A DNA stretch of 47,040 nucleotides, counting the filler, from an uncultured Methanosarcinales archaeon (GTDB taxonomy: Archaea > Nanobdellota > Nanobdellia > Woesearchaeales > UBA12501): the NCBI GenBank assembly GCA_964397315.1. It is 10 parts of 10 records of this genome, joined end to end, with 100 filler letters (N's around TTAATTAATTAA, not from the genome) between each part and the next. Parts side by side here need not be neighbours in the genome. Positions count along the whole stretch, not along the records: positions 7,130 to 14,087 come from CAYNHV010000047.1; positions 14,188 to 19,520 come from CAYNHV010000051.1; 8 more parts are not named here. One strand, given 5' to 3'. Of the stretch, positions 12,001-18,000 are shown one piece after another (position 1 is the stretch's first letter; the number at the start of each line of letters is the position of its first letter). Made by a program: the position numbers.

Positions 12001-15000
12001 TATTTCACTGAAAAGCTTTAATGCTTCTTTAGAATATTTAGTGTTTGTACCTTCTGTTTGAAGAACAGGCCCTTTAAGGTCTTTGGCATGTTCTTTATCC
12101 ATCCATCTCCGATAGTATTCTAATGATTCCCACCCAAAACCAATAGTTGCGACTATATCATTATTGTGGACAACATTTAGAAATACCCTTCTGCAATCAC
12201 AATCTGGATCATTGCAGTAGCTCTCGACAAAAAAATAGTCGCCTGCTGGAAGCTTGTATTTTGAACCTTCTGGCAGGAATATACATCTTGTCTCTTTTTT
12301 AGCAGTATCTTCAAATCTTAGATTAAACGGCTCCATCATCATTTTTTATCACCTATATTTTTCATAGCCGTTTCCAACATATTTTTCATCTTCATCCTGA
12401 TCTCATCAGGCATATCAGCAAAATTATCCAATTCTTTAATTCCTGTCTCAATATAGTGCTTAGCCATTATTGGATTTTTGCTAAAATAAACCTGAGCCAT
12501 GAATACATAAATAGGAATAAAATCAGGATATTCCTGTGTAAACTCATTATAGAATTTATCAATTGTGCTATAATCGCCTTTCTCTTTAAGCCATATTAGA
12601 AAATCGTTTATTAGATTAGTAAAATAAGTTCCTTTTTCCATTAAAAAGATAAACTTTTGCTTATCATCCATAGAAAAAAATTCACTTTCTTCTCTACCTA
12701 ATGCTTTCTGTTCTTCGCTAATATCAATATCTTCATTTCTTAAAAGGATTGTATCTATAGCCTCTTTAAGCATACCGATCTTTTTTCCAAAAGCCTCTAT
12801 GTTTTTTTCATATTCTTTTGCTTCTTCTTCATCATACAGCTCATGGGAAAAAGCTATCCATTTGACATAAGCCTGCTCATCCTGCATCCATGTCCTGTTA
12901 TCAATCGCCCATAGAAGATAGTCTAAGATAATCTTTAGTTCATGGTGTGTTATAGGGTGTTCTTGAAGCACCTCACTTAATATTTCCATAATCTCAATCT
13001 CAAGCTCGTGCTTAAAAAAATTCAAGTCATTTAGGTAGTTTTCTTTTATTTTTTTCAGTATGTTTTTAATATCTTCATCTTTTAGATCATCATCTTCATA
13101 ATAAAAATATTCAGCTGTTGCATGCTCTATTTCACCAAGAAAGTCGCTGTATTCTTGTTCTTTTCCATAAAGGCTTTTTATATGCTTTACAGCTTCTGTG
13201 TCTTTTTTTAGAAGTTTTTGCAATGGCTTAAATTCAGAATCGCTGATATCAAAAATTGAGGATGGTGTTTCAACCAGAGCATACATTTTATAAATATTAA
13301 AATATTTTGAATGAGATATTAATTCATAAAAAGCCATGCAGTGAAATCTCTTAAATGCAGACATTATGCTTGACTTGATCTTTTCATCCTTTTCTTTTTC
13401 ATATAATTTAGTTAACTCAACATAAGAATCAACATTCAGCTTGTTTAGCTCATCGATCTCTTCTTTTGTATAAATCTGCTTTTTAGCTGCTCCTAGAATC
13501 CTTATTATACTAGTAAGGAAAATGGACCTGTAGCTTTCCATGACAGAATTTATGGTTCTTCTGACTGTGCCGTCTGTACTGGTGATGTTATTAAGCAATA
13601 TCTCTTTGTATCTTTTTAGATAATCTATAGGTATTCCAATATAAAGGGTAGCATTAAGCCCCCTTATTGTTATTTTTATATTTTCATCGTCTTTGCTTTC
13701 ATGATTGTCAAGTATTTCCTTAAAAAGCTCTTTTTTCTCATCTTCATTATCTCTGCTTTCCCACGAATTCTTCTTGATCTCTTTTACAGCTTCGTTTACC
13801 TTTTCCATTTCTCCAGAATACAAATCCTGTATCAGTTTTTGTTTGTTCATTGTACATCACCAGTTGCAAAACCATACATTATAGTCATATATTAGCTGGA
13901 AATTATCATCTTCATTCTCAGGCTCAAAATCAACAAGAGGAACAACAACCTTCTTTCTTCTGACCTCCCTTCAACTAATATCCCTTAATGATCATCATAC
14001 TGGTCTGATAGTCTATGGGCATTGACAATTATGCTTCTTCTGCAATTTTGATGAAGATTTAAAAACCTCAAATTGCCCCTAAGGGCANNNNNNNNNNNNN
14101 NNNNNNNNNNNNNNNNNNNNNNNNNNNNNNNTTAATTAATTAANNNNNNNNNNNNNNNNNNNNNNNNNNNNNNNNNNNNNNNNNNNNCTCTAAAGAAATG
14201 GGAAACTTATGGTTTTTTATATAGGGGGTTTCTGGGGAGCCACATGACCAAAAGATTTATAAAAGGGCTGCTGTAATCTTGGTCCTGAACGGCCATAGTG
14301 GTGTGGTTTACCTGTACCCATTCCGAACACAGAAGTCAAGCACACCAACGTTCCCGATAGTACTGCACTTATGTGCGGGAAGTCGGGAAAGCTGTTCACC
14401 TTCTTATGCCCTTAACAGAATAAACATATAACCAAAAGAGTGCAGAATCATTGAGTCCTGTTTCAGAGTTCCACCACAATCCTGCCCTCTTTCTCGTTTA
14501 TCTCCTTCACTGTCTTGTGGCCCTTGAGCTTTTCTTTTATCTCTTTCCATGTGTGTTTCTCCCTGGCTTTCCTCAGCTCTTCAACAATGCCCTTAAGCTG
14601 CATATAGTTCTCGTATATCATCTCGCCCTTTCTCTGGCTGTCCCCTGCATCCTTTTTCAGTTTTTTTATGCTCTTTTCCTGGGCTTCTATTGATTTTCTC
14701 AGCTTTTCCGCCCCTCTTCCCTCTTCCTTCTGTTTCTCAGCCTTGTCAATGCTTGATAGCAGGGAAGTAATCACGCTGTCAAGCGCCTTGTTGTATGATT
14801 CAGCACGCTTTTTTTCATAATCCTCATGTATTTTCAGCGGGAAGGGTGTTATGTCAATTACCTCGCTGTCTTTTACCATTATCACAGGATCCGCTTCGCG
14901 GCTGGTGAGGCTGTCCAGCGCTGCCTTCAGCCCTGCTATGTCATCAGCAGAGAGTGAGGCTGGGCTGGTGCTCTTGTCTATTCCGCTCAGCAGGCACATC

Positions 15001-18000
15001 TCCTCCGCGTAAGTTCCTCCTGCTCCAAGGTCAATGGCAAGCGCCTTGACTATGCTCTGTTCAGCAGTGTCCTTGAGCGCTTTCTCAAACTCTGCCCTGC
15101 CCATGCTGAAAATGTTATGGGGCTTGGTGGGGTGCGTGTATTTCTCTCCCGGCTTGACCTCCCTGTCCTGGAATTTTTGTTTCCTTAATGAGGAGAGTAT
15201 GACTCTGCTGCTGTCTGTGAGTATTATGTTGCCCGCCCCAAAAAGCTCCAGAAACATGTTAAAGGGTTCCTCTCGTGCCTGGAATGATATATCCACCACC
15301 CTCTCTGAGCCTGACTGGCTTATGCATGAAAGCATGGAGCCTGACAGTTTCTTCCTGAGGTATGCGCAGAATCCAAAAGGCTTTTTAGGGTTCTCGGGCT
15401 TGTGCTCAGTAAGGTAAAAAAGCCTGCCCACTATCCTCAAAAGACGCCTGCCCTCCCCTGTCTTGTGCAGCTGCAGGAGCAGCTCTTCTTTCTTTGGCTG
15501 GTATATCCTGTCAACTTTTGATCCCTCAAGTGTTTTCATCTCATTGATAAGGTAATGGAGCTCAATTGCAGAGAATTCCCTTTTCATCCTATCATACCCT
15601 CGCTGCTGCACGCCTCTTTCAGGCCTGTAAAGCCGCAGACCTGCTGGCTCAGGCTTTCCCTGTCCACGAACCTGCTCGTGAGAGCCCTCTTATTGTACAC
15701 CAGCACGAACGAAGGCTCTGCTGCCTGGCTGTGTGCAACCGGCTCAAAGCCGAGGCCGGTCTTTTCAGCAACATCTTTCACAGCCTCTCTTGCCCTTGCG
15801 CATTTGTCATTACACTTTGGAGGCTCAAGAAATATGAACCTGTTCTCCTGGCTGGATGATGTGAAGCCGTTGGTGAATACTGAGATAAGGAGCAGTACTC
15901 CGAGAATTGCGGTCATTATCCTGAACCTGTCAAAGCTCTGGTGAGACTTGACATGCCTCTTCTTATTCTTGCTCATTTTGCAGGCTTTACCAGGGTTGGT
16001 GCTACTGCCAATGCATGAATGCTTGGCTGGAGCTCAGGCGTGTCTTATGCTTCTGCAAGAAGCTTGTCAATAACAGCCCTGAACTCCTTCTCCTCTGCCT
16101 CAAGGTTATCGGATCTCTCATACGCGTTTCCGATCCTGTAATACTTGCAGCCGAAAACAAAAGCTGGCACGCCTCCCTGAGGGCTGTGGCTCCAGAACAT
16201 CTCCATGTGGTCTTTGGGTATGCTGCTTTCCTTCTCCGGAGTGAGGGTGTTGTCCTTCCGGTCCATCTGCCAGTGGTATGCCGCGATCTTGCCCTCCTGA
16301 GAGTACTCAGATGCAACCTCGTCAAATGTGTCCTTAATCCATTGGCAGTGAGGGCATGTTTCTGTTGAGAAAAGCGCCACTACAGGCTTGCCCCCCTCAT
16401 AGCAGATGTCTGAGGATGAGGTTTTAAAGCTGCTTCCTGAACTGCCGCCTGTAGCAGAGCCTGTGACTCCGCTATTTCCTGTGTTGAGGTTTAAGGCATC
16501 CTGGCTGTTTCCGCTCTCATTATAATATATCTGTATGTCAGCGTTCTGGCTCAGGCTGCTCATGAGCTTCTCATTAGCCAGATAATCTCTCACCCTGCCC
16601 CTGACTTCATCAAGGCTTGCGTAAGTGCCATTGCCTGTGGCAAAGAGCTGCTTGTTTGACTCATAGAAATCCTCAATTTCCTCTTCTGTAATCTCTATCT
16701 CAGAGATGCTCTGATTAACCACCTTGTTCATTATGAGCTGGTCTCTTGTTATGCTTCTGAATTCCTCCAGCGTGATGTTGTTCTGCTCAAGCTGGCTCTT
16801 CAGCCCTTCCATGTCCAGTCCTGCTGCCTGCAGGGTGCTGTCTATGCTTGCCTGCACCTCAGCTTCTGTTGCTGTTATGCCCATATCATCCGCTTTCTGG
16901 AGCAGCAACTTCTGGGGTATCAGGGACTCTTCCAGAAACCTGCTCTTGGTGAGGCCTGATGCCTTGTAAATCTCAGGCACCCTATTATACATTGCATTGA
17001 GCTCTGTCTCTGTTATGCGCTCCCCATTGACCTCAGCAACAATATTTCCTCCTTTTTTGTCTGAAGGCGCTATATCATCATAGAATACCAGCAGAAGCAC
17101 AAGCGCTGCAAGGATTATCACAGCCACTGCAACTCTTGCGTTGCTTATCTTTTCCCTGCTCTTCTTATGGCTTCTGCCCTCTTTGGACTTGCTTCCTGAT
17201 TTCTTTGCTGATTTTCCTGAGCCTGACTTTGATTTGGATTTTTTTGATTTTGCTGCCAAGTATAGAGCACCTCCTCAGCCAAAGCCAGAGGACCCCATTA
17301 ATAAAGTTTTTGGTAAACCGGGCTTTTGTCCCTGTGAAGTTCCAATAAATATTTATATTAAAGGAAGCACGAGAGTTCTGTATGCATGATGTTGTAATAG
17401 GCAGGACAGAGAGGGACAAGGAGAGATTCGGAAAAAAGGGAACCATCTTTCTGGGAAAGCAGTACGTGAAGATGGGCAGAGTCACGTCCCTCTCCAACAG
17501 CGTGTTTCTTGATGTCTCCACCTCCCACGTTGTTTTCATATGCGGAAAGAGGGGTGCGGGTAAGTCTTATACTATGGGGGTGATTGCAGAGGGCCTTGCA
17601 GACCTTGAGAATGATGTCAGCCAGAACATAAGCTTCATCTTCCTGGACACAATGGGAATATACTGGACAATGAAGTACCCCAACAAGCCTGACGAGGAGC
17701 TGCTTGAGAAGTGGGGGCTCAAGGGAAAACCTCTTGACATTAAGATATACACTCCTGAGATATATTATAAAGAGTACAAGGAGAAGGGAATACCTACTGA
17801 CGCTTCTTTCTCGCTCAAGCCATCAGAGCTTGACCCTGCTGACTGGCATCTCACATTTGAAATCTCCCCTAATGAGCCCATGGGGGTTCTGATTGAAAGA
17901 GTGGTCCACAAGCTCAAGAAAGAGGGGAAGGATTATGACATAGATGAGATGATAGAAGAAGTGAAGAACGACAAGAAGTCAGAGCAGAACGTGAGGGACG

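Follow-up and report, generated by a model that had tools for sequence, protein, structure and literature searches.

The window analyzed here is a 47,040-nucleotide stretch of DNA from the genome of an uncultured, small-celled archaeon of the order Woesearchaeales, and it consists of ten small contigs joined by N spacers. Near the start of contig C51, which begins at window position 14188, a minus-strand gene (14463..15587, including the TGA stop at 14463-14465) encodes the N-terminal half of an archaeal RqcH, a protein of the Rqc2/NEMF family. The open frame spans 14463..15611 on the minus strand, and the ATG at 15587, which corresponds to the start in homologues, yields a product of 374 amino acids. 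A 5S rRNA gene (14285-14400, plus strand) lies between this gene and the start of the contig.

The product matches Pfam NFACT_N over positions 3-364 of 456 (E 1.4e-53) and the NCBIfam equivalog model RqcH_arch (NF041120) over positions 1-376 of 645, with a score of 289.6 bits (291.1 in the genome scan) where the cut-off for a full-length protein is 400 bits. Its matches among chains of known structure are NEMF, PavA, FBPS, Rqc2, and RqcH. At E <= 1e-10, 143 homologues were found among 6084 candidates, and nearly all of these are 340-395 amino acids long.

About residues 1-260 (14808..15587, minus strand; boundaries approximated from a model of a fused relative) form the NFACT-N and HhH part of the protein, in which the E95-R96 and E114..G119-N120 motifs are located. 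Next, at about residues 265-346 (14550..14795, minus strand), comes the first of the two long helices of the coiled-coil arm, as mapped by alignment from helices 266-327 and 329-344 of the same model. The remainder, at about residues 347-374 (14466..14549, minus strand), belongs to the N side of the M (middle) domain and consists of one short helix plus two strands, with GRIVVEL as the last residues before the break. R96, E114, G119, and N120 do not vary among 58 sequences, in which conservation of E95 is at least 90%. The alignment of residues 1-153 to NEMF 1-154 places E95-R96 opposite the D-R of that protein, and the acidic-Arg motif of the NFACT-N family is retained with a conservative Asp-to-Glu change. 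The equivalent residues in Bacillus subtilis RqcH are D97/R98, and function depends on both according to the accessible part of a preprint.

The C-terminal half is absent from the window, and a profile search matched it on contig C11 only. There, a gene for a protein of 262 amino acids (G000:C11:199-987, minus strand; stop-to-stop frame of 273 amino acids) contains the sole NFACT-R match in the whole genome (G000:C11:433-768, minus strand). Its product comprises the third M strand, the second long helix, NFACT-R, and a C-terminal domain. Residues 74-185 cover NFACT-R_1 over positions 1-112 of 112 (E 2e-35), the score against RqcH_arch is 325.9 bits over positions 380-644, and the match to NEMF 462-645 has an E-value of 5.9e-36. 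D107, H111, and G116-S117-P118 are invariant among 55 sequences, and D107/H111 align with D-I-Y-V-H of NEMF, with the D-x-aromatic/aliphatic-x-H motif of NFACT-R retained. We infer from this pattern that D107/H111 are probably the counterpart of the DWH motif of B. subtilis RqcH.

An NFACT-R fold without NFACT-N is also found in human CCDC25, as it is in the proteins of family f137 described below, and the NFACT-R region of the fused-relative model has structural matches to CCDC25 chains (E ~1e-4; ranks 40, 45, and 46). The C-terminal half differs from CCDC25, however, in that it keeps both the RqcH arm helix, which matches NFACT_N profile positions 370-426, and the archaeal RqcH C-terminal domain. 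These features mark it as a fragment of RqcH rather than a CCDC25-type protein.

In the accessible portions of the published descriptions, RqcH of B. subtilis, yeast Rqc2, and human NEMF have the domains of the two halves in identical order, namely NFACT-N, HhH, two long helices with the M domain between them, and NFACT-R. Unlike in these single-chain proteins, the chain is cut here between M strands 2 and 3 and encoded by two unlinked genes. Residues 5-373 of the N piece align with positions 6-373 of the fused protein of genome G154 (L020; stop-to-stop frame numbering), and residues 2-262 of the C piece align with positions 378-639. In alignment A3, N residue 374 lies opposite fused residue 372 and C residue 1 opposite fused residue 375. 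The fused-relative model (pLDDT 91.3, pTM 0.62), whose best structural matches are NEMF, Rqc2, and RqcH (E 1.1e-38 to 5.9e-25), has a strand at 367-372, a turn at 373-374, a strand at 375-380, and a helix at 385-432, and the last residue of the N half aligns with the end of the first of these strands. Judged by these alignments, the two halves are collinear with, and complete relative to, single-gene RqcH of the same class.

Two expectations raised by the first-pass annotation of this DNA have to be revised accordingly. Its matches to residues 1-392 and 468-670 of a 671-residue reference protein hinted at a missing middle, whereas relative to fused proteins of the same class only a two-residue turn is absent; in human NEMF, by comparison, about 80 residues separate the stretches that align with the halves. 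It also placed the break inside the coiled coil, but the cut instead falls at the arm's far tip, where the small M domain makes a two-residue beta-turn. The coiled-coil arm of the family is present but shared out, with helix 1 and two strands on the N piece and strand 3 and helix 2 on the C piece. Because the cut is in the M-domain turn, pairing of the halves would involve both helices together with a shared three-stranded sheet.

Both genes are situated no more than 300 bases from the start of their contigs, and the apparent split in another genome (G158) does indeed reflect frames that are open at contig ends. For the genome and the order studied here, however, the idea that the split is an artefact of contig ends or of sequencing error is refuted, and we give it essentially no credence. 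The orientations of the genes on C51 and C11 exclude a joining of these contigs that would fuse the halves, since the N gene has its own TGA and an intervening 5S rRNA gene, and the 5′ end of the C gene faces the interior of C11 and a further gene there. A contig (X2) that comes from another sample in the same study covers 14348-16100 with zero differences; because this identity extends over the stop codon, the stop is not specific to one assembly. The original description of RqcH as two separate genes is thus confirmed.

The same arrangement extends across Woesearchaeales, as had been proposed. RqcH_arch is matched in 119/121 genomes of the order (118/120 without the unpublished genome G112, which is included in the counts for the order), and a full-length score is reached in 0/121. 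At least two matches are present in 106/121 genomes, one in 13/121, and none in 2/121; the genomes with one match may reflect incompleteness or the true loss of a half. All the matches listed (150 of 240) are either N-type, starting at profile positions 1-3, or C-type, ending at positions 612-645. Among these listed matches, both halves are represented in 38 genomes and lie on different contigs in 36 of them. The halves are also far apart in closed genomes, with separations of 252-418 kb, including ~252 and ~352 kb on the closed contigs of G098 and G085. Two long frames (479 amino acids in G007 and 417 in G026) had been considered possible fusions, but in both the C piece starts from a Met inside the frame, and the sequence before this Met lacks similarity to NFACT_N.

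One possibility is that an original gene was broken and that its two parts are now in decay, with no quality-control function left. Reduced genomes and fragmented genes are common in this group, as far as the accessible parts of the literature go (Podar et al. 2013; Dombrowski 2019), and the gene has been lost outright in many relatives: an RqcH_arch match is absent in 23/151 sampled genomes of the class and in 28/41 genomes of another order. We nevertheless consider this very unlikely. Open frames of constant length are found in the 119 genomes with matches, each of a different family and genus, and internal stops are absent from the frames examined. Identities are 34-56% for the N half and 56-77% for the C half, with invariant residues in the motifs noted above.

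RqcH corresponds to COG1293, whose old name we take to be "Predicted RNA-binding protein." Under this name, arCOG01695 is listed by Podar et al. (2013), in the accessible portion of that report, as split in Nanoarchaeum equitans (NEQ438/NEQ506) and, at the same site, in Nanoarchaeota Nst1 (Nst1_176/Nst1_251), and in both organisms the split form is said to require post-translational assembly. We liken the present genes to these pairs, as a split of the same family, by that published listing. The two genes described here are jointly collinear with a protein that is encoded by a single gene in other organisms, which is the criterion applied in the 2013 report. The gene split itself is therefore not new, but a wider case of one already published for N. 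equitans and Nst1. Other split genes of Nanoarchaeota and DPANN archaea, such as those for reverse gyrase, alanyl-tRNA synthetase, and Dph1/2, also occur as two unlinked genes in reduced genomes and, in what could be consulted of these sources, are read as a by-product of genome reduction that is retained where the cut permits reassembly (Podar et al. 2013; Dombrowski 2019; Randau 2012). Compared with these, the cut in RqcH coincides with the tip of a hairpin of two antiparallel helices, and this hairpin provides a ready-made dimerisation surface.

Alternatively, a split intein or RNA trans-splicing might join the halves after expression, such that the working protein is a single chain. Nanoarchaeum carries an intein-split DNA polymerase. 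Trans-spliced tRNA halves are likewise known in relatives (Randau 2012, accessible part). For RqcH, however, such joining appears extremely improbable, given that each gene has its own start and its own stop, and the two pieces match the fused protein residue by residue. Because only the two-residue turn separates the pieces, there is no room for intein halves. Extra residues are absent on both sides of the break, where VEL closes the N piece and MEL opens the C piece, and a Cys, Ser, or Thr nucleophile is absent after the break.

The re-association of two separate chains through the coiled coil, as first proposed for these genes, remains the best reading on computational and comparative evidence, although the break lies elsewhere than first placed, and the split is neither peculiar to one order nor new as a gene split. 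We propose that the two genes probably encode the halves of one RqcH that pair again via the coiled coil. The likely product is a two-subunit archaeal RqcH whose halves re-form the arm as a heterodimer; both the formation of this dimer and the RQC activity itself are what we infer here. Complex prediction with the N and C pieces gave scores of 0.64, 0.64, and 0.65 in three runs, compared to 0.00 for the best of 3 controls. The mark for such scores is reached by 116/157 solved complexes versus 2/215 mismatched pairs, in a calibration that used other alignments than those used here. The runs have at least 85% of contacts in common, with partner pLDDT values of at least 83, and the predicted contacts pair N 289-342 with C 11-50 in antiparallel fashion and N 361-374 with C 1-8. 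This outcome may reflect mere likeness to solved single-chain structures of RqcH, NEMF, and Rqc2.

Sequence conservation along the two helices is consistent with the predicted interface. On the N helix, contact positions have lower entropy than other positions (1.86 versus 2.36 bits) and a higher hydrophobic fraction (0.46 versus 0.16; permutation value 0.008). On the C helix, the corresponding values are 1.12 versus 1.69 bits and 0.55 versus 0.12 (permutation value 0.036). A conserved hydrophobic seam of this kind would also be compatible with helices that self-associate or bind a different partner. In another (sister) order of the class, the two halves are encoded on the same strand within 3.5 kb and flank cysS in four genomes from four families (G192, G263, G268, and G284).

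It is also conceivable, but in our judgment unlikely, that the halves act separately or meet only on the ribosome, wherein the C half binds the large subunit alone, the N half is an independent tRNA-binding protein, and no stable free heterodimer forms. The halves are unlinked in the order, and conservation is higher in the C half than in the N half (mean column identities of 57% and 44%). In bacterial RqcH, direct ribosome contacts are made solely by NFACT-R and the arm tip, and arm-only classes are seen, according to the accessible part of the preprint. Furthermore, family f137 has a single C-type RqcH_arch match in 17/17 genomes, and in all five f137 genomes tested NFACT-R is present and NFACT_N was not found. 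Their proteins, encoded by frames of 191-204 amino acids, persist with NFACT-R only, and thus the halves need not always act together. Similarly, G272 of another order has a 196-amino-acid frame that matches profile positions 434-644 only. However, the f137 protein starts near residue 68 of the C piece and so has no pairing helix; this helix is therefore also gone where the N half was not found. In addition, two f137 alignments show Lys and His, respectively, in place of the Asp that never varies in the split forms, and the function of these proteins may differ. The conserved hydrophobic face on both helices, the clustering of the halves in the sister order, and a complex prediction that passes its controls likewise argue against independent action.

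In the heterodimer that we favor, the N subunit would provide the tRNA-facing NFACT-N and HhH regions, the first long arm helix, and two M-domain strands, and the C subunit would provide the third M strand, the second long helix, the ribosome-anchoring NFACT-R, and the C-terminal domain. After translation, the halves would re-form the arm with no covalent link, with antiparallel packing of the two helices over ~50 residues and with the C subunit adding its first strand to complete the sheet that the N subunit starts. So assembled, the dimer would act as single-chain RqcH does, on large subunits still holding peptidyl-tRNA; on such subunits, factors of this family direct C-terminal tailing. ABCE1 and Pelota, which generate the RqcH substrate, are both encoded in the genome. 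To our knowledge, the activity of archaeal RqcH has been little studied.

Several changes of the split state seem to have taken place at a single turn. The split is not peculiar to Woesearchaeales: the same turn is cut in several other families of the class, and all split lineages of the class that were examined share one common break site. One-gene RqcH is kept in at least 61/151 sampled genomes of the class, and the RqcH_arch cut-off is reached in 50/151, compared to 0/121 in the order. A gene tree rejected a single clade of all split forms (p-AU 0.006). We raise, as a possible though rather doubtful scenario, that the arm-tip beta-turn is a recurrent point of breakage and rejoining, in at least one lineage by the placement of other genes (cysS) within the gene. 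The NFACT-R half, with a function of its own, might have outlived the tRNA-binding half to become a minimal, stand-alone NFACT-R ribosome factor in some nanoarchaea, such that the two modules are kept, uncoupled, or discarded singly.

A natural two-chain RqcH would indicate that the covalent hairpin at the arm tip is dispensable. In bacterial RqcH, the arm tip contacts the stalk base and the arm helices open in a scissor-like manner during the cycle, according to the part of the preprint available. The split protein would also lend itself directly to structural and biochemical work, in that the tRNA-facing module and the ribosome-anchoring one could each be expressed, titrated, and mutated on its own. 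Because neither half passes the curated RqcH model, genomes of this type would be scored as being without RqcH in annotation. Within one archaeal class, the gene can be followed as a series from one gene to two linked genes, two unlinked genes, NFACT-R alone, and finally no match, which makes RqcH a compact case of an ancient translation factor dismantled during genome reduction.

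RqcH, the homologue of Rqc2/NEMF, is encoded in this genome by two separate genes. The first lies on the minus strand of contig C51 (5,333 bases, beginning at window position 14188), where an open frame spans 14463..15611. Homologues place the start codon at the ATG at 15587, for a product of 374 residues (the N piece), and the gene's own TGA stop codon occupies 14463-14465 of the same strand. In Pfam, the N piece aligns to positions 3-364 of the 456-position NFACT_N profile (E 1.4e-53). It also matches RqcH_arch, the NCBIfam profile of the full-length archaeal protein, over positions 1-376 of 645 with 289.6 bits; with the second half of that model left unmatched, the score stays under the 400-bit cut-off. 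Another sample from the same study yielded a contig that spans 14348-16100 with zero differences from the window. The stretch encoding the N half occurs in three DNA contigs, all from one study, and in no listed RNA run; one of these contigs may be the source of the assembly.

The second gene was located by the single NFACT-R match in the genome (61 contigs, 93% complete), at C11:433-768 on the minus strand (E 4e-36). The corresponding open reading frame, C11:199-987 (-), encodes 262 residues (the C piece), and even its stop-to-stop frame is only 273 codons long. The first 58 residues also match the tail of the NFACT_N profile, at positions 370-426, and the N piece ends at position 364; thus, the two pieces abut on that profile. 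A genome scan with RqcH_arch likewise assigns positions 1-379 to the N piece and 380-644 to the C piece. A 5S rRNA gene (14285-14400, +; 65.5 bits) sits between the N-half stop codon and the start of the contig. The 3′ end of the N gene points toward this 5S gene, and the 5′ end of the C gene points into C11, toward another gene. Therefore, joining C51 and C11 cannot fuse the halves, a claim of the first-pass annotation that is borne out by the orientation of both genes together with the 5S gene. Both halves are already present in public databases, where proteins from assemblies of Woesearchaeota and Nanoarchaeota are called “NFACT family protein” and either “NFACT RNA binding domain-containing protein” or “DUF814 domain-containing protein.”

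Several other features of these contigs were observed. A 130-residue open reading frame at 15584-15976 (-), which has a hydrophobic stretch near its N-terminus and lacks a Pfam match, precedes the N half, and its TGA overlaps the N-half ATG (ATGA). This overlap suggests translational coupling of the two genes. Farther upstream are a gene for a SurA-N plus thioredoxin-like protein (16045-17259, -) and a divergent gene for a HerA/DUF87-type ATPase (17382-18698, +). The first 54 bases of C51 (14188-14241) have summed contig depths of 110, 34, and 17 in three runs, compared to 7.8, 6.6, and about 4 for the rest of the contig in the same runs, and several contigs end there. This segment looks like a repeat boundary, which probably explains why C51 stops just past the 5S rRNA gene. 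Elsewhere, contig C47 has a G+C content of 0.31-0.33 at 11000-14000, versus 0.41-0.50 in most of the window, and this part carries two long open reading frames (11419-12342 and 12339-13850, both -). Further low-G+C stretches are present on other contigs at 22000-25000 and 37000-38000.

The two-gene arrangement extends across Woesearchaeales, as had been proposed at first pass. The full-length RqcH_arch profile was run against 121 Woesearchaeales genomes, no two sharing a family or genus; it found a match in 119 (118 of 120 without G112, an unpublished genome) and reached its full-length cut-off in none. Two or more matches were present in 106 genomes, one in 13, and none in 2. All of the 150 matches listed, out of 240, are N-type or C-type. 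Both halves appear among the matches listed for 38 genomes, on different contigs in 36 of them. On closed contigs the halves are ~252 kb (G098) and ~352 kb (G085) apart, and in a third closed genome (G016) the distance is ~418 kb. Two longer C-type frames that the first-pass annotation had left open, of 479 codons in G007 and 417 codons in G026, proved on inspection not to be fused forms: in each, the C piece begins at a Met within the frame, and the sequence before that Met has no similarity to the N piece. Single-gene RqcH is found in other orders of the class, with the cut-off passed in 50 of 151 sampled class genomes (frames of 527-747 codons). In eleven more genomes, which all belong to family f139, one frame of 582-612 codons covers the whole profile at 352-394 bits. 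An apparent split within a fused family, in G158, was rejected, given that its frames are open at contig ends and reflect an assembly break.

The two pieces are collinear and complete relative to the fused proteins of the class. Against the stop-to-stop frame of one such gene, from G154, residues 5-373 of the N piece correspond to 6-373, and residues 2-262 of the C piece to 378-639. In an alignment of the two pieces with 26 fused proteins (25 from fetched loci, plus the protein P0109), the last N-piece residue aligns with G154 residue 372 and the first C-piece residue with 375. An AlphaFold2 model of the 637-residue fused G154 protein (pLDDT 91.3, pTM 0.62), which in structure is closest to ribosome-bound NEMF, Rqc2, and RqcH, has helices at 266-327 and 329-344, a short helix at 349-354, and a helix at 385-432. 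Its strands are at 360-362, 367-372, and 375-380, with a turn at 373-374. Based on this alignment and model, the break falls at the far tip of the arm, in the two-residue turn that links strands two and three of the small M domain; it is not inside the coiled coil, where it had been placed before. The 75-residue gap implied by the first-pass coordinates stems from the reference used, and nothing is missing. The human NEMF segments that align with the halves end at 378 and begin at 462; this long insertion at the spot of the cut fits a permissive site. A separate case is the fused 603-residue RqcH of locus L062 (G181:C19:120400-123200), which lacks nearly all of the N-side M domain (profile positions 338-375), such that helix 1 leads almost straight into the third strand and helix 2. 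In this protein, either the M domain was reduced or the halves were joined again secondarily.

Complex prediction for the two pieces, using alignments of 58 and 55 sequences, yielded scores of 0.64, 0.64, and 0.65 in three runs, and the best of three controls scored 0.00. The mark applied to this score is reached by 116 of 157 solved complexes and by 2 of 215 mismatched pairs. The three runs agree in at least 85% of contacts, with partner pLDDT values of at least 83. The predicted contacts place N residues 289-342 against C residues 11-50 in an antiparallel, heptad-like arrangement (for example, N321-C18 and N307-C29), and join N 361-374 with C 1-8 as the fused model would give. Because the pieces are halves of a protein with solved single-chain relatives, this pass may reflect only likeness to those relatives.

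The helices are almost free of indels within the order. In the split lineages, the predicted contact positions are more conserved and more hydrophobic than the rest of the same helices. For the N helix, contacts compared to other positions have an entropy of 1.86 versus 2.36 bits and a hydrophobic fraction of 0.46 versus 0.16 (permutation 0.008); for the C helix, the values are 1.12 versus 1.69 bits and 0.55 versus 0.12 (permutation 0.036). Helices that pair with themselves would give the same pattern. The functional motifs of the family are kept in both halves, and the genome also encodes ABCE1 and Pelota, both of which produce the RQC substrate.

Some genomes retain NFACT-R by itself. A single C-type match is present in 17 of 17 genomes of family f137. 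In the five of these tested (93-96% complete), NFACT-R scores above its cut-off in all five and NFACT_N was found in none at E <= 0.01. In the f137 protein, a frame of 191-204 codons, similarity to the C piece sets in at about C-piece residue 68. Thus, in these genomes with no N half found, the helix expected to hold that half is absent too. G272 likewise has a 196-codon frame with NFACT-R and the C-terminal domain. These frames show that NFACT-R with the C-terminal domain can persist alone, and the f137 proteins may be either remnants or a minimal ribosome factor that stands alone. At five f137 loci (L064-L068, from G189, G182, G173, G257, and G196), the archaeal RqcH C-terminal domain is kept and the arm helix is absent. 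An Asp invariant among split forms has given way to Lys in one and to His in the other of two f137 alignments.

The persistence of these proteins also favors some INDEPENDENCE of the halves. The C half is better conserved than the N half. Direct ribosome contacts of bacterial RqcH are made only via NFACT-R and the arm tip, according to a preprint, which also describes classes of bacterial RqcH in which the arm alone is visible. The C subunit may bind first and the N subunit join on the ribosome.

In another order of the class, the halves are physically linked. Four genomes from four families (G192, G263, G268, and G284) carry the N half, cysS, and the C half on the same strand in a span of 3.5 kb or less, with gene ends that often overlap, and in G265 cysS adjoins the C half, with the N half elsewhere. 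A CysRS gene lies beside a half at 5 of 83 loci with a half or fused gene, all five from this other order and none from Woesearchaeales. What appeared to be a single 1101-residue open frame in G263 is three genes in different frames. Within the G268 cluster (L081, G268:C7:32800-37695), cysS is itself cut into two open reading frames at locus positions 1660-3945 (-), of 240 residues (profile 2-176) and 251 residues (profile 188-300 plus the C-terminal domains). Between them is a 270-residue frame with a Phage_endo_I match (33.3 bits; cut-off 29.1), which looks like a second gene split with an inserted nuclease gene still in place. In G284, of another order, an RsmB/F-type RNA methyltransferase gene recognized by Pfam follows the N half (L082, G284:C72, 2294-3572), and a similar-looking frame, judged by eye from the translation, follows it in G080 of Woesearchaeales (L071, G080:C11, ~1950-2850). 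This methyltransferase gene may be a conserved neighbor of the N half.

On this computational and comparative basis, re-association of the halves, as the first-pass annotation had proposed, is the best-supported mechanism, with the location of the cut corrected. The complex prediction, the seam, the linkage, the joint loss, and the retained motifs all speak for it.

The C piece begins at the same strand in all split lineages examined, namely Woesearchaeales and families f132, f143, f145, f152, f159, f166, f167, and f170. A quick-search maximum-likelihood tree was built from the NFACT-R and C-terminal region of 64 genomes (194 columns; 34 split, 26 fused, and 4 NFACT-R-only rows); the G158 fragment, a short alignment from f137, and any second locus from a genome already represented were excluded. 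This tree requires five changes between split and fused states, three of them forced by starred branches. Forcing all the split forms into one group lowers the log-likelihood by 88.4 units (p-AU 0.006), a test weakened by the naming of the group after the first tree had been seen. An earlier 48-row tree is compatible with a single origin. The fused gene of G269 (602 residues) falls among split relatives, beside G266 with SH-aLRT 97, and shares with these relatives a shortened M domain. Given the tree changes, the AU test, and the placement of G269, the state probably changed more than once at the M-domain turn. Repeated splitting, re-fusion, or transfer would each fit a single-gene tree without an outgroup.

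We take the description “Predicted RNA-binding protein” to be the old name of COG1293. In Podar et al. 2013 (Table 1 and accompanying text), a gene so described is listed as split in both Nanoarchaeum equitans (NEQ438/NEQ506) and Nst1 (176/251), with the break at the same site in the two, and RqcH is equated with COG1293 in the methods of the Crowe-McAuliffe preprint. Because of that list, the split counts as already published for Nanoarchaeota sensu stricto. For Woesearchaeales, it was not found in print in the literature searchable outside subscription journals and the 2003 genome paper. Neither its description as a split RqcH quality-control factor nor its mapping to the M-domain turn was found in the same literature outside subscription journals.

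The finding is real and cleanly defined, and gives an already listed nanoarchaeal gene split a new, much larger membership, within a group in which split genes are familiar. What makes it valuable is how neatly the cut falls in the structure, together with a comparative series that leads from a single gene to none at all and the use that can be made of a naturally two-chain RqcH.
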